A stretch of DNA of 57,290 nucleotides from the NCBI GenBank assembly GCA_000960865.2, contig JZWU02000007.1, positions 1 through 57,290 on the forward strand, written 5' to 3'. Position 1 is the stretch's first letter; every line of letters begins with the position of its first letter. The notes beneath the pieces were generated by a model. The model was not told where the DNA came from and searched no databases. It was given only the letters and a program-made list of their open reading frames with translations. The translations under genes and the position numbers were made by a program. The stretch comes from Vulcanisaeta sp. AZ3. GTDB lineage: Archaea > Thermoproteota > Thermoprotei > Thermoproteales > Thermocladiaceae. Shown in pieces: positions 20,696-57,237 of the stretch.

Positions 20696-20738
20696 AAACC
20701 GATATTTCTTAACTTCCCTTTGCCATGCTCTTGTTTAG

Positions 20739-20814
20739 TGCGGCCGCCGGGATTTGAACCCGGGTTCTGCGGCTCGGGGGGCCGCCATCCTGGACCAGTC
20801 TAGACCACGGCCGC
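20739..20814 (-). tRNA. tRNA-Gly(CCC), no intron, CCA not encoded
   Basis: GCGGCCG acceptor stem; anticodon arm GCGGC-CCCCCGA-GCCGC; T arm CCGGG-TTCAAAT-CCCGG; 76 nt. Confidence 0.93.
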
Positions 20815-22003: not shown

Positions 22004-22022
22004 TTTTCTATAATGGTAACGC

Positions 22023-22030
22023 TTAAAATA
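22023..22030 (+). promoter_or_regulatory. TATA box of the CM/PDH-aroF-aroB-aroE operon
   Basis: TTAAAATA in the intergenic region; uORF ATG starts 28 nt after it. Confidence 0.55.
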
Positions 22031-22057: not shown

Positions 22058-22078
22058 ATGGAATATCAATATTGTTAG
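22058..22078 (+). promoter_or_regulatory. Candidate Tyr-rich leader uORF MEYQYC*
   Basis: ATG GAA TAT CAA TAT TGT TAG at the leaderless-start position, upstream of the Tyr branch gene. Confidence 0.55.
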
Positions 22079-22144
22079 GAGTCTTGGTAAAAACATGTAG
22101 TACGCTTCATCACTTAGTATTAGGTTTGTCGAAGGTGATGGCTT

Positions 22145-23125
22145 ATGCTTAATGCACTTAGGAGTGAGATTGATTCTATTGATGAGGAATTAATTGATTT
22201 GCTGATTAAACGCCTTGAGCTTGCGAGAAGGCTAGGTGTTATTAAGAGAGAGGCTCATTTGCCGATTATTGATGTAGAGCGTGAGGAGGAAGTGATCAGC
22301 AGGTGGGTTAGTAGGTTAGTAGGGGCTGGTGTTAATGAGGAGTTGGCTCATGAGTTGGTTAATGCAATCATTAGGGCTTCAACTTATGTTCAGGTTGGTG
22401 ATAGGTTAAATGTTAGTGTGACTATTGTGGGTTCTGGTCGTGTTGGTAGGACCATGGCTAGGGTACTGAGTAGGGTCGCTACTGTCTCTTTAATACACTT
22501 AGGTGATGAGTTGGGTAGGTCTGATGTTATTATGCTCGCTACAAGGCCCACTAATGATGCTGTAGATTTTGTAGTTAAGAATGTTGAGGCTCTACGTAAT
22601 TCCATACTTGTTGATTTATTCTCAGTGAAGTCTGTATTCTTTAGGGTTTTTGAGGATTTATCATTAAGTCATGGTTTTCATTATGTGAGCGCTCATCCAC
22701 TCTTTGGCGAGGTTGGTGAACCTGTTGGGGAGGGGGTTGTTTTGATTCCTTCTAGGAGCGGTGGAGAGGGGATTAATTTGATTAGGGATTTGTTTGGTAA
22801 TGCTGGTTTGAGCGTCATTATTTTAGATAGTCCTGAGGAGCATGATAGGTTAATGGCCTATCTGCAGGTTGCTCACCATTTAGCCTTACTTGCCCTCTAT
22901 GTGTTATTTAAGAGAGTTGGAGTTGAATTGAGAGGCCCCTTATTAACGCATAGTCTTAGGTATACTGTTAGAGCTATGGATAGAGTGTTGAGCCAGTTAG
23001 ATGTTGTTGAAGAGATACAGAGACTTAATCCCTACTCTCGTGCCGTTAAGGAGGAGTTTTTAAATGCCCTGAGGCTCATAATCAATGCTGTGAATAAGGA
23101 TGAATTGACTAAGGTGATTAAATGA
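22145..23125 (+). CDS. tyrA: Chorismate mutase / prephenate dehydrogenase fusion
   Basis: AroQ-type LRSEIDSIDEELIDLL..R; GSGRVG, DLFSVK, SAHPLFG and EEHDRLMA motifs. Confidence 0.88.
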   Translation: MLNALRSEIDSIDEELIDLLIKRLELARRLGVIKREAHLPIIDVEREEEVISRWVSRLVGAGVNEELAHELVNAIIRASTYVQVGDRLNVSVTIVGSGRVGRTMARVLSRVATVSLIHLGDELGRSDVIMLATRPTNDAVDFVVKNVEALRNSILVDLFSVKSVFFRVFEDLSLSHGFHYVSAHPLFGEVGEPVGEGVVLIPSRSGGEGINLIRDLFGNAGLSVIILDSPEEHDRLMAYLQVAHHLALLALYVLFKRVGVELRGPLLTHSLRYTVRAMDRVLSQLDVVEEIQRLNPYSRAVKEEFLNALRLIINAVNKDELTKVIK

Positions 23126-27578: not shown

Positions 27579-27637
27579 GACTAGTGAACCTATGGTTAAG
27601 TTTTATGGAAATATAGAGAATATAGGTTAGGATAATC

Positions 27638-27645
27638 TTTAAATA
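27638..27645 (+). promoter_or_regulatory. TATA box of tkt(-aroA)
   Basis: TTTAAATA; uORF ATG starts 26 nt after it, tkt ATG 46 nt after it. Confidence 0.65.
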
Positions 27646-27670: not shown

Positions 27671-27697
27671 ATGGAATATCGAAACTTCCAATGGTAA
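27671..27697 (+). promoter_or_regulatory. Candidate aromatic leader uORF MEYRNFQW* overlapping the tkt start
   Basis: ATG GAA TAT CGA AAC TTC CAA TGG TAA; contains Tyr, Phe and Trp codons; tkt ATG at 27691 is in the -1 frame. Confidence 0.65.
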
Positions 27698-29403
27698 TTG
27701 GAAAGCTAAGTGAACCCTTGGATGTTAGTAAACTCATGGAGGTTAGGGATAAGGCAAGGAAAATCCTCGCTGAGTTAGATAAGGAGTTTCCATATATACA
27801 CTTGGGCTCCTCATTGGCAGCCTTGGACGTAATAAATTTGATAATTAGGATTATGAGAAGGGATGGTGATTGTGGTGATAAATTTATACTGAGTATTGGC
27901 CATGTGGCTCCAGCACTCTACTCCTTATTGGCTGTTGAGGGTGTAATACCGATTAGGGAACTCTTTGAGATTAATCACACATACTCGGTAATATCAACTC
28001 ATGCCGATAACATGGATGTACCATACATAGATGCAACCACTGGATCCTTAGGTCAGGGATTAAGCATGGGTGTTGGTTTAGCCCTGGCTAATAGAATTAG
28101 GGGTTGTGAGAAAGGCATTGTGTTTATTTTGATGGGAGATGGTGAGTTAAATGAGGGGCAGTCTTGGGAGGCCGCCATGACTGCCGTTAAGTATAACTTG
28201 AATAACCTAGTAGTCCTTGTTAGTCTCAATGGTTATCAACTAGATGGACAAACATCGTCAATAAAACCAATAAATCCCGTGAAGGTTTTCGAAGCCCTTG
28301 GCTGGAATGTACTTCAGGGTAATGGCCATGATTATGGAGAAATTATGAGACTAATAATGAAAGCCTTAGAGTCCAGGGATAGGCCAACAATCATATTCTT
28401 AAGCACTACGAGGGGCAAGGGAATTAAGGGAATTGAAAACACACATAGGCAAACCCTGAATCCGCCACCAAGACCTCAATTCTCCATGAGGGAAGCCTTA
28501 GGTGTCACTCTTGCTAGGCTTGGTGAGGATAATGATAAGTTAGTCGTAATAACAGCAGACGTTGGTGAATCAACCAGAGCAAGATACTTCGGAGAAAGAT
28601 TTCCTAGTAGATATTTCAATGTGGGTATTTCTGAGCAGGACCTAATTGGCATAGCTGCTGGTCTAGCCCTTGGTGATTATGTGCCTGTGGCGATGGCATA
28701 CGCAATGTTCATGATGAGGGGTTGGGAGCAAATTAGGAATTCCGTGGGTAGGATGAAACTTAATGTGAAGTTCATAGCGACTCACGCAGGGCTTAGTGAT
28801 TTCGCTGATGGGCCAAGTCACCAAGCCCTAGAGGATGTGGCCTTGATGAGGAGTCTTAGTGGGATGGTTGTTGTGGCGCCTGCAGATGCTTGGGATGTGG
28901 AGAGAATACTTCCTAAGGTAATTGAGTATAGAGGGCCTGTATACGTTAGGATTGGCCGTGATTACTCACCGCCAATAACTATGGATTTAGACTACGAGTT
29001 TAGGCTTGGGGAGGTTTATAGTATCGTTGATGGCGATGATGTGGCCATAATGGGCTATGGTCCAGTCCTCTTCAATGCGATACAAGCAGCCATGGAGTTG
29101 AGGAGGAGGGGTATTAGTGTTGGTGTTTATAATATGCCCACGATAAAACCGCTCAATGAGGATTCTGTGAGGAAAATTGCCCGTAGAATTGGTAGAGTAG
29201 TAGTGGTTGAGGAGCATTCGCCCCGTGGTGGGTTAGGATCTGCTATCGCCGAATTGGTTAGTGGTTATGCCAGAGTTGTGACTTTGGGTGTTAATGATTA
29301 TGGGCATTGGGGTAGGTCTGAGGAAGAATTGTTGAGGTTTTACGGACTTGATGAGGAATCAATAATGGATACCATAATGAAAATCGTAAATGAACATATA
29401 TAA
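27691..29403 (+). CDS. tkt: Transketolase, N- and C-terminal halves fused
   Basis: TGSLGQG, GDGELNEG, NVGISEQ and DGPSHQ motifs. Confidence 0.92.
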   Translation: MVIGKLSEPLDVSKLMEVRDKARKILAELDKEFPYIHLGSSLAALDVINLIIRIMRRDGDCGDKFILSIGHVAPALYSLLAVEGVIPIRELFEINHTYSVISTHADNMDVPYIDATTGSLGQGLSMGVGLALANRIRGCEKGIVFILMGDGELNEGQSWEAAMTAVKYNLNNLVVLVSLNGYQLDGQTSSIKPINPVKVFEALGWNVLQGNGHDYGEIMRLIMKALESRDRPTIIFLSTTRGKGIKGIENTHRQTLNPPPRPQFSMREALGVTLARLGEDNDKLVVITADVGESTRARYFGERFPSRYFNVGISEQDLIGIAAGLALGDYVPVAMAYAMFMMRGWEQIRNSVGRMKLNVKFIATHAGLSDFADGPSHQALEDVALMRSLSGMVVVAPADAWDVERILPKVIEYRGPVYVRIGRDYSPPITMDLDYEFRLGEVYSIVDGDDVAIMGYGPVLFNAIQAAMELRRRGISVGVYNMPTIKPLNEDSVRKIARRIGRVVVVEEHSPRGGLGSAIAELVSGYARVVTLGVNDYGHWGRSEEELLRFYGLDEESIMDTIMKIVNEHI

Positions 29404-29445: not shown

Positions 29446-30736
29446 ATGGGTAAATTGGTGATTAGAGGTTTTAAGGTTAGGAACGAGATTGTTGATGCAC
29501 CACCTAGTAAGGCATTCACTTTGAGATATCTACTTGCCTCCGCCCTATCTAGGACTTGGGTCAATCTTAGGAGATTGAATTGGGGCGATGATACTTGGTC
29601 TATGATCAGGGGTGTGAAGCCAGTAACGGAGATAGAGATTAAGGGAGATCTCGTTAGAGTTAGACGTGGATTAAGCCCCGAACGGTTTAGAATAATTGAT
29701 GTTGGTGAGAGCGGGTTCACTCTTAGAACATTGACCGGAGTCTATGCTGGTATTGACGGTGTTACAATACTCATGCCCAGAGGATCCTTGGTCAATAGGC
29801 CAATGGATGAATTAATAAGTGCTCTAAAGGCTATTAATGCCAAGATTGACAAGTCTGGTAGTGTCATACGGATTGTTGGTGGTAAGTTAGTTGGAGGTTA
29901 CGTATCGATTAATGGCTCGGTGAGTTCACAATTTATATCATCACTTCTCTACCTAGCACCACTCACAGAGAGTGGTATTGAAGTCAGTATCAGGCCTCCA
30001 ATAAAGTCTAGGCCTTATATTGATGCTACCATAAGTGTACTTAGAGATTTTGGAATAAGTGTTGAGGTTGAGGATAACTCAATATACATAGGGGGGGCTG
30101 CAGGAGTATAGGGCTGTTAATGATGAGTTTATAGTGCCTGGGGACTACGCATTATCTGCTTTCTACATGGTTCTATCAGCACTGGCAGGCTTTGACCTTA
30201 GAATCACAAACTTAATGAGAGGTAAAGCTGTGGAGGGTGAATATGCGTTCATAACTCACGCCAAAGAGATGGGAGTAGAGATTGAGGATGGTGATGATTA
30301 CGTGCTCATTAAAGGCTCACAAACTAAGGAATTAGACCCCGTTGATGTCGATCTGAGTGATTCACCTGACATAACAATGCCTCTTGCTCTACTCATGGCA
30401 AGAGCCAAGGGTAAGTCTAAGGTTATGGGCGTTAGTCATATAATTCATAAGGAGAGCAATAGGTTAAGGGGCATAGCGGAGGTGCTTAAGTGTTTAGGTG
30501 CTGGTGTTAGTGTTGATGAGGTTAATGGTATTATTGAGATTGAAGGTGTTAATGAATTTAGAGGTGGATGCGAGGTGGATACTCAGGGTGATCATAGGAT
30601 AATCATGATGGGGGTTGTGGGAGGTCTCCTGGCTAAGGAGGGGGTTATGATTAATGATTGGGAGGGTGTTGGTAAGTCCTGGCCAACCTTTATCTGGGAC
30701 TTGGAAAACCTTGGGGCTGTGTTTAGGTATGAGTAA
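29446..30736 (+). CDS. aroA: EPSP synthase, split by a +1 frameshift in G7 (30091-30097), probably a sequencing error
   Basis: PPSKA, GESGFT, SSQFISS, KESNR and DHRI motifs; G6 restores IGGLQEYRAVNDEFIVPGDY. Confidence 0.92.
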
Positions 30737-31393: not shown

Positions 31394-31512
31394 TAATGTA
31401 GCCCTCATAATAAATGCTAAAAATGCATTCTACTTTTGACGGAGTTTCTCATGATAATTATTTAAGAATATATACAAATCTTTTTATGCAATACTGAATC
31501 ACGTATTATTGC

Positions 31513-33660: not shown

Positions 33661-33774
33661 CAATTATACCTCAATAGGCTCATTAATAAAGCATTACCTA
33701 ACTACATAGGTTATTAATTGATTATATATCATTATTGGGCTAGTAATTATTAATGAGCATCATATACATAATGT

Positions 33775-33782
33775 TTTTAAAT
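33775..33782 (+). promoter_or_regulatory. TATA box of trpABDFEG
   Basis: TTTTAAAT; uORF ATG starts 28 nt after it, trpA ATG 39 nt after it. Confidence 0.65.
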
Positions 33783-33809: not shown

Positions 33810-33830
33810 ATGGAGCTCCAATGGACATAA
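33810..33830 (+). promoter_or_regulatory. Candidate Trp leader uORF MELQWT* overlapping the trpA start
   Basis: ATG GAG CTC CAA TGG ACA TAA; trpA ATG at 33821 is in the -1 frame. Confidence 0.65.
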
Positions 33831-34540
33831 AGAGACCGGGACTGGGTGCATACATAACAGCCACATACCCGAATAAAACTACGTTTCTAAACGTAATAAG
33901 ATGCCTCTCCAGTGTTTCAGATTTCCTCGAGGTTGGTATACCAACACGTAATCCTAAGTATGACGGACCACTTATTAGAAAGGCTCACTTCGCAGCTGAG
34001 TTGAGTGGTTTAGAGGCAGTTAGTGTAACTAGGTATGGGGGTGTTCCAACGATATTGATGGGTTATGTGGAGGATTATGTGAATAAGCTTGATCAGGTTG
34101 CTGAGGTTGCGGTTAAGGTTGGTGCTGTCTCAATACTCTTTCCAGACTTACTTTTTGAGTATTTGGATAAGGTTGAGGATTATGCAACTGTCATGAAGGA
34201 TTATGGACTCAGACCTAGTTTCTTCGTTTCTAGTAATACGCCTCATAGGATTGTGAGTTCTCTCATTAAGTATGAACCTCTCTTCATATACTTAGGCCTC
34301 TATGCGTCTACAGGCATAAGGTTACCGCTATACATTGAGAGGAATATTAGGGAGGTTAGAAGGTTGGTGGATGGAGTAACTCTAGTGGCGGGCTTCGCCA
34401 TAAATACGCCTGAGATGGTTAGGCTTGTAATAAATGCAGGTGCCGATGCCGTGGTTGTCGGTACCGCACTTATGGATAAGTTAAGTGATGAGAGGAAGTG
34501 TATGGAGTTCATGGAGTACCTAAGGGGTGGTTTACTATGA
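33821..34540 (+). CDS. trpA: Tryptophan synthase alpha chain
   Basis: LEVGIP..NPKYDGP, AGFAI and [10 protein letters not shown] motifs. Confidence 0.92.
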
Positions 34541-35790
34541 TGGTTCCTCACTATTGGTACAATATAAATGTAGACCTACCGAGACCCCTACCGCCACCGA
34601 TTGATCCTTACGAGGGCGACTCAAGAATTGCACTGCTCATGAGAATATTACCCAGTGAGTTGTTAGATCAGGAGTTCACAGCGCTTAGGTATGTGCCGAT
34701 ACCTGATGAGGTTAGGGAGCTTTATGCTAGGGTTGGTAGGCCAACGCCTCTCTTCAGGGCTTATGGGCTTGAGAAAGCTTTAGGCACGGGTGTTAGGATT
34801 TACTATAAGTTTGAGGGTGCATTACCAGCGGGTTCACATAAGCTTAACACGGCTCTGGCTCAGGTATATTATGCCCTTAAGGATGGAGCGAGAGAAGTTA
34901 TTACAGAGACGGGTGCTGGCCAGTGGGGGTTGGCTGTTTCTTTAGCATCCTCGCTCCTTGGTGTTAGGGCTACGGTATTCATGACCAAGAACTCCTACTA
35001 CAATAAGAGGGGTAGGGTTCTCTTCATGAAGACGTACGGCGCTAAGGTTTACCCAAGCCCCAGTCAGTTGACGAAGTATGGTAAGGAGGCCCTAAGGGTT
35101 AAGCCGGATCATCCTGGAAGTCTTGGTTTAGCTATTACTGAAGCAATTGAGTACACACTCATGGATGAGGGTAGAAAATACATACCGGGTAGTGTGCTTG
35201 GGTTCGTAGTTCTTCATCAAACAGTCATTGGTCAGGAGGCAATTAGGCAGTTGCCTGAGGAACCAGACCTAGTGATTGGATGCGTTGGCGGTGGCTCTAA
35301 TTTCAGTGGTTTCTCCTTCCCAATGATTGGTGTTAAACTCAGGGGTGAGGGATTTAGTAAGACGAGGTTTCTGGCTGTTGAATCCGAGGCTGCACCTAAA
35401 CTAACAAAGGGTGAGTATGGATATGACTTCCCAGATAGTGGTGGTTTATTACCTATGGTGAAGATGTTAACGCTGGGGCACGACTTCATACCGCCACCAA
35501 CTCATGCCGCTGGACTTAGGTATCACGGAGCTGCGCCAGCCCTGTCCTTATTGGTTAGGGAGGGTATTGTGGAGGCAAGATCTTACGGTCAAGAGGAGGT
35601 TATTGAAGCTGCAAGACTCTTTGCAAGGACCGAGGGGATATTGCCAGCTCCAGAGTCTGCTCATGCTATTAGGGCTGTGATTGATGAGGCAAGAAGGCTA
35701 CCGAGGGGCTCTGTGATAGCTTTCAACTTGTCGGGTCATGGCTTGTTGGATCAGGACTTCTATGAGAAGGTAGTAGGTGATGAGGAGTGA
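34537..35790 (+). CDS. trpB: Tryptophan synthase beta chain, TrpB2 type
   Basis: [21 protein letters not shown] and GLRYHG; ATGA overlap with the trpA stop. Confidence 0.95.
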
Positions 35791-36794
35791 GGGATTTACT
35801 GGATAAGGTTGCGAGGAGAGTGCATTTGACGTTTGAGGAGGCCTATGGCGTAGCTAGGGATATGTTGGGTGGTGTTGATGAGGCTTTGGGGGCTGCGGTA
35901 CTGATGGGTCTTAGGGTTAAGGGTGAGGCTGCAGAGGAGATAGCCGGCTTTGCTAAAGCCCTCAGAGATAGTTGTATTAAGATACCACTGGGTGAGGAAC
36001 TCGATAGGTTCATTGATACTGCTGGGACTGGTGGCGATGGTTTTGGAACTCTAAATGCCTCAACAATTGCTGCATTAGTATCAGCGTACTTGGGAGCTCA
36101 CGTGATTAAGCATGGCAATAGGAGTGTGTCCTCAACCTCTGGAAGTGCTGATTTCCTAGAGGCACTGGGCTTCAACATAGAGATTCCGCCGAAGAAGGTC
36201 GCAGAGATGGCCTTGAAGTATAGGTTCTCCTTTGCCTTCGCTCCAGCTTACCATCCAGCAATGCGTAATGTCATGCCAGTAAGGAGGAAGCTTGGTATTA
36301 GGACTATATTTAATCTTATAGGTCCCTTAGCAAACCCGGCATTAGTCACTAGACAGTTAATTGGAGTTGCAGATAGCTCCTTGATTGATGTAATGGCTCA
36401 GGCAGCTATGATGTTGGGTTTCGAGAAAGCTGTGCTTGTGCATGGGGAGCCTGGCATTGATGAGGTTTCGGTCTTCGGCAAGACCATCGTGGTTGAGGTT
36501 AATGGGAGAAGGATTGATAAGTATTTAGTGGAGCCTAGGGATCTTGGGCTTAGGGAGTATAGGATTGAGGATGTCCACGTCAGTAGTCCAAGAGAGAGTG
36601 TGGAGAGGTTTAAGAGAGCTGTTGCTAGTGCTGATTTAGCGTCTAGAGACTTCATTACGGCGAACACAGCCTTTGCCCTCTATGTGGCTGGCATAGTTAG
36701 AGATCTTAAGGATGGTGTTGAGTTAGTTAAGGCTGAGTTTGATGAGGGTGTTTTGGATTACGTGGATGAGTTAGTTAGGGTGAGTAGATCATGA
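35787..36794 (+). CDS. trpD: Anthranilate phosphoribosyltransferase
   Basis: DTAGTGGDG and KHGNRSVSS motifs. Confidence 0.97.
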
Positions 36795-37423
36795 CTTTCA
36801 TTAAGATCTGTGGTGTAACAAATGTAAGAGATGCTATAATGGTTAGTAAGTATGCGGATTACGTAGGTGTCGTGGTTATGGCTAGGGTTAGGACCCCTAG
36901 ACTTGTGAATAGTAATACTGCCAGGGATATACTGAGTGTGTTGAGCGGGCTTAAACCAGTGGCTGTGGTTGAAGGTTTTGACTTTAAGGAGGCTTTGGAT
37001 TATGTGGTTAAGCTTGGTTTTCCCATAATTCAATACCACGGTTTAATCGATGCAGAAAAATTAAGGGCTGCTCACGATGTGGGGGTTAAGGTAGCTCCTG
37101 TGATTAATTATGATGGGGATGAGGTGTTGCGCGTTAGAGAATTGATTGAGCATGAAGATGTGGAGTACGTGCTCATAGATGCGCCTAAGACCGGCTATAG
37201 GCTCTTTGAGCATGGACTTAAGATACCGATTGATATTGTGAGGAGGTTTAGTGAGATAAGGAAGGTTGGTTTTGCTGGTGGCATAAACCCAGAGAATGTG
37301 CGCTTGGTCCTTAGGTACAAGCCTTACTTAATCGATGTTAGTTCAAGTGTTGAGGAATCCCCTGGTGTTAAGAACGAGATCTTAGTAAGGAGATTGTATG
37401 AGATGGTGAGGAATGGTGGTTAA
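36791..37423 (+). CDS. trpF: Phosphoribosylanthranilate isomerase
   Basis: KICGVT, AGGINPEN and DVSSSVE motifs. Confidence 0.93.
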   Translation: MTFIKICGVTNVRDAIMVSKYADYVGVVVMARVRTPRLVNSNTARDILSVLSGLKPVAVVEGFDFKEALDYVVKLGFPIIQYHGLIDAEKLRAAHDVGVKVAPVINYDGDEVLRVRELIEHEDVEYVLIDAPKTGYRLFEHGLKIPIDIVRRFSEIRKVGFAGGINPENVRLVLRYKPYLIDVSSSVEESPGVKNEILVRRLYEMVRNGG

Positions 37424-38672
37424 GAAGGTACCCTTACAATTCATGCCAAAGCCCAGAGACTTAGTTAGGACCTTAATTAGTAATGGTGAGGATTACGTGA
37501 CATTACTAGAGAGTGGACCAGGCTTTCCGGAGAGAGCTAGGTACACAATCGTTGCTTGGGGTGTTAATGAGGAGCTGAGGGTTGATTGGGATGGAGACCT
37601 CTATAATGAATTACAAGGATTAGTAAGGGGCCTTGGATCCCTTGAATATGGTGATGTGGCCCTTGGATACCTATCCTACGAAGCTACAGCACAGATAGAA
37701 CCTCATTTAACTAAATTATTACCAAGACCTAGTTGGCCTCTGGCGCACTTCTTTAAGCCCTCCAATGTTGTTATTTATGATAACTTTCTTGGTAGGGCTT
37801 ACGTTAAGGGTGAATTACCCAGAGTTGTTAATATTGAGGCTAATGAATTTGAGGCTACCAGTAAAGTCGGAGCCACACCCAAAGAGACATTTATTTCCTG
37901 GGTTGAGAGAGCTCTTGAGGATATTAGGAATGGTGAAGTTTTTCAAATAGTCCTCTCCAGATATGAGGATTACCAGGTCAGAGGTGACTTAGTAACATTG
38001 TATGAGAGGTTGGCTGACTTGAATCCATCGCCATACATGTACTTTATGAAAATGGGTAAGGAGTACATAATTGGCACAAGCCCTGAACTACTCATTAAGG
38101 TGGAGGGTAACCTTGTGGAAACACATCCAATAGCAGGCACGAGACCAAGAGGATTAGATGCTTGGGATGATCTTAGGCTTGAGGATGAATTACTCAATAG
38201 TATTAAGGATAGGGCTGAACATATTATGCTTGTTGATCTAGCTCGTAACGATTTAGGCAAGGTCTGTAGGTTTGGTACAGTGAAGGTTAGGGAATTATAT
38301 GCAGTGGAGAAATATCAAAGTGTTCAACACCTGGTTTCCAGAGTTGAGGGTATTCTCGAGAAGGGTTATAACATAATCGATGCATTATTCGCGACATTCC
38401 CTGCCGGTACCGTAAGCGGCGCCCCTAAGCCTAGAGCCATGGAATTAATTGCGAGATATGAAGAAACTCCAAGGGGGCCCTATGCTGGTGCTCTTGGCAT
38501 TCTCCATAACGATGGAGGTGAATTCGCAATAATAATTAGGTCATTGGTTATCAGGAACGGTATTGCTAGGATCCAAGCTGGAGCTGGAATTGTGTATGAC
38601 TCCATACCTGAACTTGAATTTCAAGAGACCGAGCATAAGCTTGGCTCATTAAAGAGGGTGATGGGGACATGA
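37413..38672 (+). CDS. trpE: Anthranilate synthase component I
   Basis: LLES, NPSPY, PIAGT, EHIMLVDLARND and GAPK motifs. Confidence 0.96.
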   Translation: MVVKKVPLQFMPKPRDLVRTLISNGEDYVTLLESGPGFPERARYTIVAWGVNEELRVDWDGDLYNELQGLVRGLGSLEYGDVALGYLSYEATAQIEPHLTKLLPRPSWPLAHFFKPSNVVIYDNFLGRAYVKGELPRVVNIEANEFEATSKVGATPKETFISWVERALEDIRNGEVFQIVLSRYEDYQVRGDLVTLYERLADLNPSPYMYFMKMGKEYIIGTSPELLIKVEGNLVETHPIAGTRPRGLDAWDDLRLEDELLNSIKDRAEHIMLVDLARNDLGKVCRFGTVKVRELYAVEKYQSVQHLVSRVEGILEKGYNIIDALFATFPAGTVSGAPKPRAMELIARYEETPRGPYAGALGILHNDGGEFAIIIRSLVIRNGIARIQAGAGIVYDSIPELEFQETEHKLGSLKRVMGT

Positions 38673-39253
38673 GTACGGTAGTCATAATAGACAATTATGA
38701 TTCCTTTGTATATAATATAGCCCAGTATGTAGGCGAACTTGGAACCAGGCCCTTGGTTTTTAGGAATGATGAAGTCACAATAAAGGTTATAGAGAGACTT
38801 AGGCCTGATGGCATAATAATATCGCCAGGCCCTGGCAACCCAACAAACCCCAGGGATGTAGGCATCTCGCCAGACGCAGTTAAGTATTTCGCGGGTAGGG
38901 TACCAATACTGGGTATTTGCCTTGGACATCAGATAATTGGTGTTGTGTATGGTGCTAGAATTAGGAGAGCTAGGATGGTAAAGCACGGTAAGACTAGTAC
39001 TATTAGTGTAATCAGAGATTCAAGGGTCTTGAGAGGTTTACCAAGGAGCTTCGAGGGCATGAGGTACCATAGCCTAGTCATTGATAATATTAGTAATCCA
39101 TTAATCGTCACTGCAATATCGACGGATGACAATGAAGTTATGGCAGTAGAACATGCAAGGTATCCTGTGTTCGGTCTTCAATTTCATCCAGAAAGTATTG
39201 GAACGAGGTATGGTAGGGAAATCATAAAGAATTTTATATCTATCCTGACATAG
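38669..39253 (+). CDS. trpG: Anthranilate synthase component II
   Basis: IDNYDSF, SPGPG, GICLGHQ and QFHPES motifs. Confidence 0.97.
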   Translation: MSTVVIIDNYDSFVYNIAQYVGELGTRPLVFRNDEVTIKVIERLRPDGIIISPGPGNPTNPRDVGISPDAVKYFAGRVPILGICLGHQIIGVVYGARIRRARMVKHGKTSTISVIRDSRVLRGLPRSFEGMRYHSLVIDNISNPLIVTAISTDDNEVMAVEHARYPVFGLQFHPESIGTRYGREIIKNFISILT

Positions 39254-39656: not shown

Positions 39657-42028
39657 ATGTATTTAACCAGTACCACCTTCTCATTTGCGTGGCTACTCAA
39701 AAACTTATTGTTTGGCTTAACGAGGAGGCAGAGAACGTTTCTCGAGGTCAATGGACTTAAGGATAAGATAATCAATACGATTAGGGAAATCATTAGAGAG
39801 AAGAAACCGGAGGAGTATGAGGAAGCTCGTAAGGTCATTAAGGAATTAATAATTAATGCTGAGATGCCTAAGGAGATTATTGAGGAGATTAATAGAGCAT
39901 ATATGGAGTTAAGTAAGAGATTTAGTGCTAATGCCATACCTGTGGCTGTTAGGTCTAGCGCAACTGCCGAGGATTTAAGGACCGCTAGTTTTGCTGGTCA
40001 GCAGGATACGTATTTAAACGTGGTTGGAATTGAGAATGTTATTAAGTACATCAAGTACGTGTGGGCTAGTATATAATGCGAGAGCCCTAGCCTATAGGGA
40101 TGAGAAGAAGATACCTCACGAGAGAGCCTCCATGGCTGTGGTGGTTCAGAGGCTTCGTTAATAGTAGGGCGTCGGGCGTTATGTTCACGATAAATCCCGT
40201 CACGGGCAATAGGGATGAAAATGTCATAGAGGGTTCTTGGGGCCTTGGAGAGGCTATAGTTGGTGGTAAGGTTACACCAGATAGGTGGATTGTGGATAAA
40301 AATAGCCTCGCAATTAAGGATAGATATGTATCTAATAAGTCAATGATGATAATTAAGGATGAGAAGGGCCTCACGAAAGAAGTTGAGGCACCTCAGGATA
40401 TAGCCACAAAACCTTCGTTAAGTGATGAAATGGTGATAGCCCTTGCTAAGATTGGGTTAGCACTAGAGAGATATTTCGGTTATCCAGTGGATGTTGAGCG
40501 GGCTCTTGATTCAGATAGCGGTGAGCTTTATGTTGTTCAGACCAGGGCTGAAACCGTGTTCAGTGTGGGTGAGGCTAAACAAGTTGGGGACAGTAAGGTG
40601 CAGGTTGAGAGTAGTAAGAAGGTCGTGGTTAAGGGTATACCTGCAAGCCCTGGTACGGCTATTGGTAGAGTTAGAATTTGCTTATCCGTAGATGATGCGA
40701 AGAGTAGGATGAGTAAGGGGGCCATATTAGTGACTAGGATGACAAAACCTGACTGGGTGCCGTACATGAAGATTGCTGTCGCAATAATAACTGATGAAGG
40801 TGGGATGACAAGTCATGCAGCAATAGTATTGAGGGAATTAGGAATACCGGCCATAGTGGGTACTGGTAATGCGACTGCTGTACTTAGGGATGGGGATGTA
40901 TACACGGTAGATGCAGTGCATGGTGTGGTTTATGAAGGGGAAGTTGAGGAGTTCAAACAAAAAGAGACAAAGGTTACCGAGGGAGTTACGACCTCGGTGT
41001 CTGGTAGTGAAATAATACTTCACATCTATAGGTCAATAAGGACTGCTACTGGGGTTTACATGAATTTAGGGGTCCCGGAGAAGATTGATGAGTACAAGGA
41101 TCTACCCTTTGATGGTATAGGCCTCATGAGGATTGAATTCGTACTATCGAGTTACATTGGTGATCATCCACTGTACCTAATTGATATTGGTAATGAGGAA
41201 AAGTTCGTGAATAAGTTAGCCGAGGGAGCTGCCTATGTGGCTAAGGCCATATACCCGAGACCAGTCATAGTTAGATTTAGTGACTTTAAGAGCAATGAGT
41301 ATAGGCAATTAAGGGGTGGTGAGAAGTACGAACCTGAGGAGAGGAACCCAATGCTGGGTTGGAGAGGCGTGTCTAGGTACATAAGTAAGGCTTATGAACG
41401 GGGCTTTAGGCTTGAGGTAAGGGCTATCAAGAGGGTTAGAGAGAAGTTTAACCTAAGTAATGTTCATGTAATGGCACCCTTCGTGAGGTCACCGTGGGAG
41501 TTGGAGAAATTCATGGAGATAATGAAGAGCGAAGATTTGGATAGAGGTAGGGACTTCAAGGTATACGCCATGGCTGAGATACCAAGCATAGCTCTCCTTG
41601 TTGAGGATTTTGCAAAGTACGTAGATGGATTCTCCATAGGGAGCAATGACTTAACACAACTCGTACTAGGTACGGATAGAGATAACGAAATATTAGTCAG
41701 ACAAGATACGAGGTATTTTGATGAGAGAGATCCAGCAGTTCTCAGGGCTATGTATGAGATTATAAGGAGAGCTCACGTGACGAATAAGAGCGTGGGTATA
41801 TGCGGACAAGCACCTTCAGTATACCCGGAGATTACGGAGTTCTTGGTAAGGGCAGGGATAGTCTATGTAAGTGTAAATCCAGATGCAATAATAACCACGA
41901 GACTCCTCATCGATTCAATAGAGAGAAAAATACTCCTCGAAGAACTTAAAGAATTAAGAATAAAGCTCATGAACATAGATCCAGACATAGAATTCAAAAG
42001 CATATTAAGTAAAACATTCAGAGGTTAA
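39657..42028 (+). pseudogene. ppsA: Phosphoenolpyruvate synthase, 5'-truncated with two frameshifts
   Basis: AVRSSATAED and SFAGQQDT, then YNARALAYR...MAVVVQRL in a second frame (~40072-40155), then VNSRASGV, GGMTSHAAI and SIGSNDLTQ in a third; N-terminal GGK motif absent. Confidence 0.85.
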
Positions 42029-55706: not shown

Positions 55707-56165
55707 TTACTCAGCGTTTTCCTCAGTGGCTATGCTATTTAGTGACTCCACTAATGCCGTCGATGTTAGACTCTCGATAAGTTGTCTTGACTTCTCGTAG
55801 TATGCATTTATTAGTTGCAACAACTTTTGTTTTACATAATTGATAGGTTTCGTGTAGTACACGTAGGTGTAGCCTCCATTCTTTGCAAGCACGGGCCTCC
55901 TGGCCACTAGACCTAACTGCACGAGCTTGATTAGAGATCTCTCAATTGTGCTTCTGGACTTGTTCATTTCCTTTGCTATCTCTGCAACGGTTAGTGGATC
56001 TTTAACCTTGCTTTGTAGTAGGTAATAGATCTCAACCTCTGTTGGTGATAATCTAAGTATACACCTGAGAATGTACTTAATATCGACATCCTCAAGAATC
56101 TCTTCGGTGCTTCTTTCCTTAATTGTTACGAGAGACACCACGTGAATCGCCAACATCAGTGTCAC
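55707..56165 (-). CDS. TrmB-like HTH transcriptional regulator (start uncertain)
   Basis: LTVAEIAKEMNKSRSTIERSL and GGYTYVY motifs. Confidence 0.85.
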   Translation of the reverse strand: MTLMLAIHVVSLVTIKERSTEEILEDVDIKYILRCILRLSPTEVEIYYLLQSKVKDPLTVAEIAKEMNKSRSTIERSLIKLVQLGLVARRPVLAKNGGYTYVYYTKPINYVKQKLLQLINAYYEKSRQLIESLTSTALVESLNSIATEENAE

Positions 56166-56256
56166 ATAGCGTATATTTAAACCTTTCCTTCCAAAATTTC
56201 CATAAAGTATCCATTTATATTAAAGATTATTTATAATAACTATAATAACATAAGCT

Positions 56257-57237
56257 CTATAGCTCTACAGTTAGCCCAATACCATTATTTTCAGCAACTC
56301 TATGAATATACAATGCAGCAGCGATATCCTCAGCAGCAATACCTACTGACTTAAATACTGTAATATCATCAGCACTAGTCCTGCCTTGCCTTAATCCAGC
56401 TACTATCTCTCCGATCTCTATCAAATTATTTTCAGAGAGTATACCGTTCCTTATTGGAATTATTATGTCACCTGTTTCGTTAGTTACAGCCTCACGAGAA
56501 TCAACAGCTATTACCCTGGCATTACGTATAACATCATCATCCAACTCCCTAGAACCTCTCTCCGGCGCTCCAACGGATATTACATGAATTCCCTTACCTA
56601 GCCAAGAACCATGAATGACTGGTTCCTTGCTCGTGGTTAATGCAATCATGACATCCACATTTTTAACAGTATCAGCACCAGAATCAACAACCACAGAATC
56701 CACACCCCTATTATTAATTAACTTAGCAAGCTCAAGGGCCCTCTCCTTAGTTCTTGAATAAATAACAAACCTCCTTATGTTGAATATCCTCGTCAGTAAT
56801 AATGCATGATACTTAGCTTGAAAGCCGGCACCAATCAGCGCAATATTATTCACATCCTTAGCCATGTACTTAATTGAGACGGCACTTGCCGCAGCGGTTC
56901 TCCAAGCAGTGAGTGAAGTACCGTTGATCACAGCTAGGGGAGGTCCTGTCAAGTCGTCAAAGAGGACAATAATACCTTGCGTTGTGGGTAAGTCCCGTGA
57001 CTTATTACTTTCAATTACATTAACAATCTTCACAGAAACACCAACGCCACGTGCCCCGCATGGCATTACGCCCCACCAATCATTATTAATGTACATAACA
57101 ACTCTCTGAGGCATCACAAACCTACCCATGCTATAATCCCTAAAGGCCAATGCAACTGCATCAACTAGACCCATTGCATTTTCACGAGAGTCCAATAACC
57201 TATCAATATCATCACCGCTCACAATTCTTAACTTCAT
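56257..57237 (-). CDS. Ornithine cyclodeaminase / alanine dehydrogenase (mu-crystallin) family
   Basis: LTAWRTAAASA, GAGFQA and FKSVGIAAED motifs. Confidence 0.9.
   Translation of the reverse strand: MKLRIVSGDDIDRLLDSRENAMGLVDAVALAFRDYSMGRFVMPQRVVMYINNDWWGVMPCGARGVGVSVKIVNVIESNKSRDLPTTQGIIVLFDDLTGPPLAVINGTSLTAWRTAAASAVSIKYMAKDVNNIALIGAGFQAKYHALLLTRIFNIRRFVIYSRTKERALELAKLINNRGVDSVVVDSGADTVKNVDVMIALTTSKEPVIHGSWLGKGIHVISVGAPERGSRELDDDVIRNARVIAVDSREAVTNETGDIIIPIRNGILSENNLIEIGEIVAGLRQGRTSADDITVFKSVGIAAEDIAAALYIHRVAENNGIGLTVEL

Follow-up and report, generated by a model that had tools for sequence, protein, structure and literature searches.

Putative amino-acid-sensing leader reading frames with -1 slip sites before trpA and the transketolase gene of a Vulcanisaeta contig

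Why should a reading frame of six codons be laid across the start of trpA, the gene for tryptophan synthase alpha, with its single Trp codon overlapping the trpA AUG in another register? The question is raised by positions 33,810 to 33,830 of contig JZWU02000007.1 (assembly GCA_000960865.2) from the archaeon Vulcanisaeta sp. AZ3, whose 57,290 nucleotides (nt) were analyzed as a whole and are called the window below. A preliminary description, made from the letters of the window, had noted this mini open reading frame (mini-ORF) and a similar one before the transketolase gene (tkt), and had proposed that a ribosome paused there for want of Trp-tRNA slips by -1, or re-initiates, into the enzyme frame. 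To our knowledge, the means by which archaea match amino-acid synthesis to supply are poorly known. We have followed up the proposal by sequence comparison among related genomes, from which all of the support reported here derives. The comparisons make it probable that both mini-ORFs, of trp and of tkt, serve as amino-acid sensors through -1 ribosomal frameshifting at a hungry cognate codon, by which the enzyme is switched on.

The window is contig C7 of a 1.51-Mb genome in 55 contigs (G000), and in gene content and promoters it accords with a member of the Thermoproteales. Relatives are coded by family (f) and genus (g), the source itself being f1/g1; f1 may be the Vulcanisaeta/Caldivirga group and f2 the Pyrobaculum/Thermoproteus group. 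Leader peptides are written up to their stop codon, and coordinates are collected in Table 1.

The trp and transketolase leaders

The sequence agrees with the preliminary description as regards the 2 leaders themselves: both read as had been noted, with a Trp codon over the trpA or tkt ATG in the -1 frame, and a GGAG is present at 33812-33815. The trpA ATG (33821-33823) consists of the A of the leader CAA and the TG of the leader TGG, trpA lies in the -1 frame, and the leader TAA follows 7 nt after the A of that ATG. Residues 3-238 of TrpA align to positions 1-240 of the 244 in NF009621. The trpA ATG stands 46-47 nt from the promoter motif.

We searched 61 related genomes for TrpA and read the best 30 loci. 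Absence of the motif from orthologues would have told against the proposal; instead, CCAATGG, with its TGG over the trpA ATG and a TAA at +7, was present in 18 of 18 loci from g1 (10 loci), g2 (6) and g5 (2), among which TrpA identity falls to 54%, and the same heptamer recurs in the tkt leaders of 12 of 12 g1 genomes. An in-frame ATG, GTG or TTG for the trpA leader was found in 17 of the 18. Otherwise these leaders vary in length and sequence (MELQWT, MPQW followed by S, R, T, K or V, MPPQWS, MKLQWR, MRDGKLQWV, MSGEVKLQWA), and one of them, L005, has an extra CCC, an in-frame 3-base insertion by which the frame is kept. In all 18 loci codon 3 of trpA is ATA, TTA or GTA and codon 4 begins with A, so that the leader TAA is preserved. 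In the g1 loci the leader ATG is preceded by GGTGG.

The 8-mer TCCAATGG, on which the preliminary description had laid weight as common to both leaders, is indeed present at both sites, but its recurrence is by itself no evidence and we rejected the count as such: the window holds 2 copies against 2.50 expected (standard deviation 1.6), and 70 of 100 shuffles reach 2. What exceeds chance is the conservation.

At tkt the ATG (27691-27693) is again overlapped by the leader, whose TAA lies 4 nt after the A of that ATG. We observed that the design fits in 25 of 28 genomes from two families (g1 12/12, g2 2/2, g5 1/1, f2 10/10), tkt being always in the -1 frame. The 12 g1 leaders read MEY(R/Q)(N/D/E)FQW, with one MEYQFQW; their Tyr codon is TAT or TAC, and their stop is TAA or TGA because codon 2 of tkt is restricted to GTA or GTG. 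A 3-base deletion in one leader, L038, also keeps the leader frame. The g2 leader, MEFGTHVEYLEW, is encoded by ATG GAA TTC GGG ACC CAC GTG GAA TAC CTG GAA TGG TAA and has its Phe, Tyr and Trp codons each after G_GAA, while that of g5 is ATG CAA TTG GAA TAT CTA TAA. All 10 f2 leaders examined are of the form M..GY..SGW..(GF), with each aromatic codon after G_GGG; one of them contains TCG GGG TAC, TCG GGG TTC and TCG GGG TGG. Past the leader ATG, no in-frame start is present for tkt in g5 or at one of the f2 loci.

Both leader sites are covered by contigs from 3 DNA runs of 2 studies, and these show no indel there; the frames are thus not the product of an assembly slip, and the concern that CC might be a misread CCC at either site is answered. 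No RNA run was found to contain the sequence. Folding of the RNA gave z-scores of -0.29, -0.75 and +0.83, with no significant structure at trpA or tkt, and at the leaders, which overlap their genes, no terminator-like site and no alternative terminator/antiterminator hairpins were found, in keeping with the earlier suggestion of a switch that needs no terminator hairpin.

Table 1. Positions of the leaders, putative slip sites, promoter motifs and associated genes (plain numbers are window positions; the last 3 rows are on another contig of the same genome)
Feature	Position	Strand	Remarks
TATA-like box CTTAAAAT, tyrA promoter	22022..22029	+	36 nt before leader ATG
tyrA leader mini-ORF ATG GAA TAT CAA TAT TGT TAG (MEYQYC)	22058..22078	+	third leader in window, absent from the preliminary description
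-1 frame from G_GAA_TAT, 30 open codons, no start codon	22060..22152	+	ends in TAA 5 nt into tyrA
tyrA (chorismate mutase + prephenate dehydrogenase, by reading of the translation)	22145..23125	+	first of overlapping aro ORFs
TATA-like box CTTTAAATA, tkt promoter	27637..27645	+	33-34 nt before leader ATG, within the leaderless peak; tkt ATG 53-54 nt away
aro/tkt leader mini-ORF ATG GAA TAT CGA AAC TTC CAA TGG TAA (MEYRNFQW)	27671..27697	+	one Tyr, one Phe and one Trp codon
Putative slip site G_GAA_TAT (Tyr sensor)	27673..27679	+	G_GAA_TAY in 12/12 g1 leaders
A_AAC_TTC (Phe codon, weaker slip context)	27682..27688	+	g1 contexts: A_AAC 3, G_GAC 2, G_GAA 5, A_GAA 1, C_CAA 1
Putative slip site C_CAA_TGG (Trp sensor) over tkt ATG	27688..27694	+	12/12 g1 leaders; TAA or TGA directly after
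Transketolase (fused N and C halves), 570 amino acids, -1 frame of leader	27691..29403	+	NCBIfam NF004559, NF004556
TATA-like box TTTTTAAA, trpA promoter	33774..33781	+	motif start 35-36 nt before leader ATG; transcript start predicted
trp leader mini-ORF ATG GAG CTC CAA TGG ACA TAA (MELQWT)	33810..33830	+	sequence; comparison of 18/18 trpA loci
Proposed slip site C_CAA_TGG	33818..33824	+	P-site CAA to CCA, -1 A-site codon AUG; slippage putative
trpA (tryptophan synthase alpha), -1 frame of leader	33821..34540	+	NCBIfam NF009621, E 3.9e-82
Remaining trp operon after trpA, overlapping ORFs	34498..39253	+	TrpB-like matches TIGR01415; trpD, trpF, trpE, trpG by reading of the translation
pheA leader GTG AAC GAG CTG GAA TTC AAA GAA TAA	G000:C5:11581-12582 (L091/L092)	-	pheA in -1; no in-frame start for 31 codons after slip site
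Aspartokinase, leader MEMETKY (Met and Thr codons)	G000:C5:21050-22176 (L184)		-1 design, kept in relatives
Threonine synthase thrC, leader MGIEMETRN/METRN	G000:C5:24257-25491 (L185)		-1 design, kept in relatives

Leaders of the same design before other biosynthetic genes

The arrangement seen at trpA and tkt recurs before genes of other amino-acid pathways, where the codon that follows the putative slip site changes with the pathway. For pheA we applied an automated test with three requirements: a leader no longer than 20 codons that starts with ATG or GTG, a TTY codon after G_GAA, C_CAA or G_GGG, and a long ORF for pheA in the -1 frame. Among 50 loci read, 45 have the design: 43 that pass the test, and 2 from g9 with G_GGA_TTC. 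The stretch from the upstream stop to the slip site lacks an in-frame ATG, GTG or TTG at 30 of these 43, and in g2 that stop lies one codon ahead of the slip site. Over the 24 codons after the slip site, differences at codon positions 1/2/3 numbered 691/457/1310 among 16 distinct g6 sequences and 217/167/426 among 9 from g8; judged from such comparisons, the pheA frame is coding from the slip site onward.

In f2, the sister family, trpB is preceded by ATG (TCN) TCG GGG TGG and a stop at 25 of 25 loci, about 25 nt past a TATA box, and trpB is in the -1 frame; the sole nearby in-frame start is the GTG formed by the slip site itself.

At tyrA the -1 frame of the leader leads to the gene by way of a bridge. 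ATG GAA TAT is kept in all 10 g1 loci that hold the tyrA 5' end (other leaders being MEYLDS, MEYYLDP, MEYLEA and MEYQYQ). In 9 of 9 g1 loci the -1 bridge is open for 30-34 codons and its stop falls at +4 to +13 of the tyrA ATG; at the tenth locus, from G012, the -1 frame is tyrA itself. The spacers concerned are 78-87 nt long with 56-90% identity, frames 0 and +1 close early, and after shuffling of the spacers the frame was open in 10-20% of trials per locus. A separate observation, made in this genome at about 22109-22138 of the window, is that CAUCACUU in the tyrA leader could form base pairs with AAGGUGAUG, the Shine-Dalgarno region of tyrA; taken as a whole, the fold is not significant.

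By a motif scan across the genome we were led to thrC and the aspartokinase gene. A Thr codon follows the slip site of the thrC leader in 29 of 29 loci, in ATG GAA ACC (g1), ..CTG GAA ACA (g4) and GTG GAG GAA ACA (g2); the f2 leader, ATG GAG GGG ATT TCG GGG ACG, combines G_GGG_ATT for Ile with G_GGG_ACG for Thr. Similar thrC leaders are present in three more families of the class (f13, ATG GAA ACA TAG; f6, C_CAA_ACA; f5, G_GGA_ACA). For aspartokinase the g1 leader ATG GAA ATG GAA ACC, with Met and Thr codons, was found at 9 of 12 loci, and related leaders were found in g2 and g5. In the -1 products of this genome, profile matches begin at residue 15 for ThrC and residue 12 for aspartokinase, and the first in-frame start codons come 30 (ThrC) and 44 (aspartokinase) codons after the slip; starting there would cut half of the ThrC zinc ribbon and the kinase KVGGS motif.

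In the same genome the leader ATG GTG GAT AAA CTG GAA CAC TAA, in which a His codon follows G_GAA, precedes a gene for a major facilitator superfamily (MFS) metabolite/H+ symporter (G000:C6:17678-18945, L186), whose ORF lies in the -1 frame and runs for 14 codons before any start; this transporter may be a candidate for induction by His starvation. A methionyl-tRNA synthetase (MetRS) candidate from a stricter scan was spurious and has an ordinary in-frame ATG. Further candidates (a thiolase with leader MEC, a deacetylase-like gene, a helix-turn-helix protein at window 55707-56263, an ATP-grasp protein and one unknown) were set down to chance or left open.

The leaders follow a common plan: each lies at the position of a leaderless start, a cognate codon comes directly after X_XYY (G_GAA, C_CAA or G_GGG), the zero frame soon meets a stop, and the enzyme ORF is in the -1 frame. 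The cognates are Trp on trpA and trpB, Phe on pheA, Tyr on tyrA, Tyr, Phe and Trp on tkt, Thr (with Ile) on thrC, and Met with Thr on aspartokinase. As regards position, leader starts lie 28-37 nt (aspartokinase 40-41) past the promoter motif, and the ATGs of this genome's long ORFs peak at 30-33 nt (103 of 237). The P-site codon and the base before it obey X_XYY or G_GGA, such that codon positions 1 and 3 still pair after a -1 move; a classic X_XXY_YYZ heptamer is absent at the leaders. X_XYY or G_GGA stands before the sensor codon in all of the listed trpA, pheA, trpB, thrC and tkt leaders, as compared with 5.9% of codon junctions in genes, where GAA makes up 30% of the Glu codons. We also made a neutral tally by a rule that picks leaders blind to codon identity, from which tyrA was excluded because its gene is not in the -1 frame. 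A cognate codon came after the slippery leader junction in 167 of 217 cases (trpA 14/19, trpB 11/12, tkt 59/68, pheA 21/26, thrC 35/51, aspartokinase 27/41), while cognates account for 229 of the 1275 codons there.

A proposed starvation-dependent slip and its rivals

We propose that these leaders would work in the following manner. Transcription would start at or a few bases before the start codon of the mini-ORF, and ribosomes would begin there. Given ample cognate aminoacyl-tRNA, decoding of the sensor codon (UGG at trpA; UAU, UUC and UGG at tkt) would proceed, the ribosome would stop 1-2 codons further on, and little enzyme would be made. When that tRNA is scarce, the A site would stand empty and the P-site tRNA on X_XYY (C_CAA, G_GAA or G_GGG) would slip back by one base, as it can because codon positions 1 and 3 still pair. 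The shifted ribosome would continue in the -1 frame, which is that of the enzyme, and the product would carry 3-12 extra N-terminal residues; at tyrA it would cross the 30-codon bridge and stop on the tyrA start, so that its translation would be coupled to that of tyrA. The slip from CAA to CCA on Trp shortage, as the preliminary description had it, gains comparative support from the match between codon and pathway and from the enzyme frames that lack a start; that the slip depends on starvation is what we infer. The overlap of Trp codon and start codon, which had first drawn attention, appears to be a by-product of the slip site, since CAA or GAA before UGG sets the -1 codon as AUG at trpA and tkt.

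With less assurance than for these 2 leaders, we incline to a wider reading, namely that the amino-acid biosynthesis of a whole archaeal class is in large part run on a frameshift code of three elements: the leaderless mini-ORF, the X_XYY or G_GGA site at which the P-site tRNA slips, and a single sensor codon, the enzyme ORF lying in the -1 frame. As part of that reading, and favoured to the same extent, exchange of the sensor codon would re-address the switch: Trp, Phe, Tyr, Thr, Ile and Met have been seen in this place, and His before the transporter is a candidate.

A number of observations weigh against frameshifting or against its generality. At trpA and tkt the -1 codon is an AUG at the natural N-terminus of the enzyme, and in this genome the GGAG lies 5 nt upstream of the trpA AUG, so that plain initiation is possible at both genes; also, re-pairing on C_CAA leaves a C-U mismatch at the middle position. 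Of the best 30 trpA loci, the remaining 12, from f2 and g4, have no such leader at trpA, and at L006 the leader ATG is out of frame, with a run of six C, in a metagenome-assembled genome (MAG) with many internal stops. The tkt genes of g3 (1 genome) and g4 (2 genomes) do not fit. The g3 leader (L057, from G014) is MEFLENSN with G_GAA_TTT; its -1 frame closes after 3 codons and its stop overlaps the tkt ATG as TAATG, by which we take it to be a coupling-type variant with a polarity opposite to that expected. The tkt Phe site is in a poor context (A_AAC, G_GAC) in 5 of 12 g1 genomes.

Among the pheA loci, 3 from error-rich MAGs keep the leader while the ORF is broken and the frame disagrees, and at two from g4, L114 (G027) and L117 (G024), the ATG is overlapped by the TGG of a short upstream ORF (uORF), in CCC CAA TGG and GTA TGG, respectively. 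The thrC loci compared from f4 and f3 are without such a leader; the other 3 g1 aspartokinase loci, again from error-rich MAGs, disagree in frame, and the aspartokinase genes of g3, g4 and f2 have a plain ATG, that of f2 lying directly behind thrC. In the MAGs G002, G003, G005 and G009, loci of tkt, tyrA, pheA, trpB and aspartokinase show frame disagreements of one base and stops within the gene; exceptions from these four MAGs are weak evidence because the assemblies are error-rich. Genome-wide scans for short ORFs behind TATA-like motifs returned 247 and 483 candidates, and a stricter one 38 rows, from which no false-positive rate was obtained; part of the noise comes from the genes themselves, inside which ATG often occurs in the xAT Gxx register (98 long -1 as against 25 long +1 frames). 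Finally, the related genomes that make up our counts are not independent samples.

The best surviving rival is that the leaders are ordinary uORFs that involve no frameshift: ribosomes on the mini-ORF would cover the enzyme AUG, or would terminate 4-7 nt past it and re-initiate, and the enzyme would be made from its own AUG or GUG, with the leader modulating its level. The natural N-terminal AUG of TrpA and Tkt in the window suits this reading, as does the spacing of the stops, since the geometry of termination and re-initiation is present at trpA (7 nt), tkt (4 nt) and the end of the tyrA bridge (+4 to +13); likewise the overlapping stop of the g3 tkt leader, and the g2 aspartokinase gene, which has an in-frame ATG past the slip sites. 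We nevertheless consider it unlikely. It leaves unexplained the frames that are coding yet have no start of their own, as seen at 30 of 43 pheA loci and, in this genome, at thrC and aspartokinase (in the window the -1 frames of trpA and tkt do have an AUG). Nor does it account for the matching G or C that invariably precedes the P-site codon, a Glu codon there being GAA without exception, or for the retention of sensor codons past an overlapped GTG, as with Phe in the f2 tkt leaders. Moreover, stalling at the Trp codon would place the ribosome over the AUG, the wrong polarity for feedback. Initiation at a non-AUG -1 codon was rejected because that codon varies (AUU, AUA, GUU, AAC, AAU, GAU).

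Two further rivals are each improbable to a much greater degree. The leader peptide (..QW., ..EF., ..SGW) together with the free amino acid might stall termination and so block the overlapped start, for which TnaC and the MAGDIS leader are models of stalling by peptide plus ligand at termination. The sensor residue is indeed near the C-terminus of the leader, with the stop often within 0-2 codons. The leaders, however, have just 3-16 codons and are variable save for the slip and sensor codons, conservation is at the nucleotide level (GAA rather than GAG, and the preceding G or C), and such stalling offers no route to enzymes whose frames lack a start. Alternatively, the sequences might be a DNA operator, at which a repressor responsive to aromatic amino acids acts on the transcription start, the mini-ORFs being incidental. 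Repressors binding across the transcription start are a common feature of archaea, and short palindromes or repeats do occur: TGGAGCTCCA at trpA of this genome, TGGAAT..ATTCCA at tkt, and three copies of TGGAAT in g2. Yet the trpA palindrome is missing from the other 17 loci, and the genera share just 7 bases, those of the slip and sensor codons, while keeping frame, stop and cognate codon; the 3-base changes in L005 and L038 both preserve the frame, and an operator leaves unexplained the open -1 frames at tyrA and the start-less enzyme frames. Apart from these, a G-quadruplex in the GGGG tracts of the f2 leaders was set aside, since leaders with G_GAA or C_CAA would be left unexplained by it.

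It is hardly credible that two look-alikes were picked by chance or through annotation artefact, out-of-frame ATGs near gene starts being common in an AT-rich genome. The 8-mer count does equal expectation, the loose scans return hundreds of short uORFs and the MetRS candidate was spurious; against this, conservation of the design extends over genera, families and seven gene families, the amino acid being the right one in every case.

Relation to known systems and other features of the window

Bacterial prfB, the gene for release factor 2, is autoregulated by a +1 frameshift that takes place at a stop codon and is stimulated by a Shine-Dalgarno sequence, a case confined to one gene. The mechanism proposed here would resemble it in that a slow A-site codon lets the P-site tRNA slip, the new frame encodes a product that relieves the shortage, and the site is short and early; it would differ in being a -1 shift at sense codons for at least six amino acids, in a separate mini-ORF, before many genes, and in archaea. 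In the attenuation of bacterial trp, phe, thr and his operons, a leader ORF with several cognate codons acts through terminator and antiterminator hairpins. Common to both would be a short leader ORF before biosynthetic genes that senses charged tRNA through their own cognate codons, and the Thr and Ile codons of the bacterial thr leader are mirrored in the f2 thrC leader; here, by contrast, there is no hairpin or terminator, one codon serves per amino acid, and the output would be a change of frame. An archaeal counterpart of bacterial attenuation was not found in the literature searched.

Statements on the papers cited below refer to excerpts of them. A +1 frameshift in Escherichia coli pheL was judged incidental by its authors (PMC3082878). 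Leftward frameshifting at hungry codons in E. coli (Gallant and Lindsley) is cited in 2 reviews (PMC5009743, PMC8211752), of which the former also treats antizyme and the latter states that the starvation regime needs no stimulatory RNA structure. On useful trans-frame products from such shifts, the relevant excerpt of the 2016 recoding review says that 'no examples are known' (PMC5009743). The archaeal leaders share with the E. coli case the lack of a stimulatory RNA structure, but there the shift is an error in starved laboratory cells, whereas here it would be a conserved and used mechanism.

In mycobacteria, leaderless polycysteine short ORFs (the 'ribulon') are described in which a stalled ribosome opens an RNA duplex that hides the following gene's ribosome-binding site (bioRxiv 10.1101/834739). 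As far as the excerpts of that report go, the likeness would lie in a leaderless sensory mini-ORF placed first in amino-acid operons, with loci responding jointly through pausing at cognate codons, and the difference in that the system is bacterial and has no frameshift, while the present leaders show no significant structure at trpA or tkt. Another comparison is with fucA1 of Saccharolobus solfataricus, where a -1 frameshift likewise joins two ORFs in a crenarchaeon; its slip heptamer, reportedly A_AAA_AAT, is however of the classic kind and lies within the gene, the first ORF is not a leader mini-ORF, and there is no link to amino-acid supply. In the excerpts of a 2021 review it is the one reported archaeal case of programmed -1 frameshifting (PMC8211752). 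Within open full text, and by term look-ups in the GeneTack paper (PMC3711429), no description of the mechanism proposed here was found. A paper on Pyrobaculum small RNAs (PMC3388794) gives, in its excerpted part, 51 sense reads for one species at the prephenate dehydratase 5' end, with a footnote on a small RNA resembling small nucleolar RNA; these reads could not be related to the pheA leader.

If the proposal is true, this would be the first case in which hungry-codon frameshifting, known for thirty years as error alone, is put to natural, selected use, and also the first amino-acid control of the leader-peptide type in archaea. The ribosome would read starvation directly and convert it by a one-base slip into enzyme, and neither a regulator protein nor an RNA structure would be required. 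Many of the N-termini and start codons annotated for enzymes of these genomes would then be wrong, and the seemingly absent start codons of several biosynthetic genes here would be explained. The design would also offer synthetic biology in thermophiles a portable, re-addressable sensor of about 15-30 bases.

Several minor observations may be recorded. The short uORFs at the g4 prephenate dehydratase loci L114 and L117 carry a Trp codon in place of the Phe codon. An EPSP (5-enolpyruvylshikimate-3-phosphate) synthase-like gene, aroA by reading of the translation, occupies window 29446-30736 as two ORFs (29446-30111 and 30134-30736); this split is most likely an indel error of the window and not a real frameshift, since contigs from all 3 DNA runs are one base short at position 30091, inside the gene. 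All 3 runs also depart from the window in a 1-base deletion at 31412 and in a TAA inserted behind 31835. A phosphoenolpyruvate (PEP) synthase-like gene at 39657-42028 is seemingly split as well (39657-40076 and 40100-42028), possibly by an indel. ARAGORN listed 19 tRNAs in the genome, among them tRNA-Glu(UUC) and tRNA-Gly with anticodons CCC, UCC and GCC; this inventory is incomplete, as it found no tRNA for Gln, Tyr or Trp. The gene for tRNA-Gly(CCC), at window 20738-20814 on the minus strand, is situated just upstream of the first aro gene's promoter.

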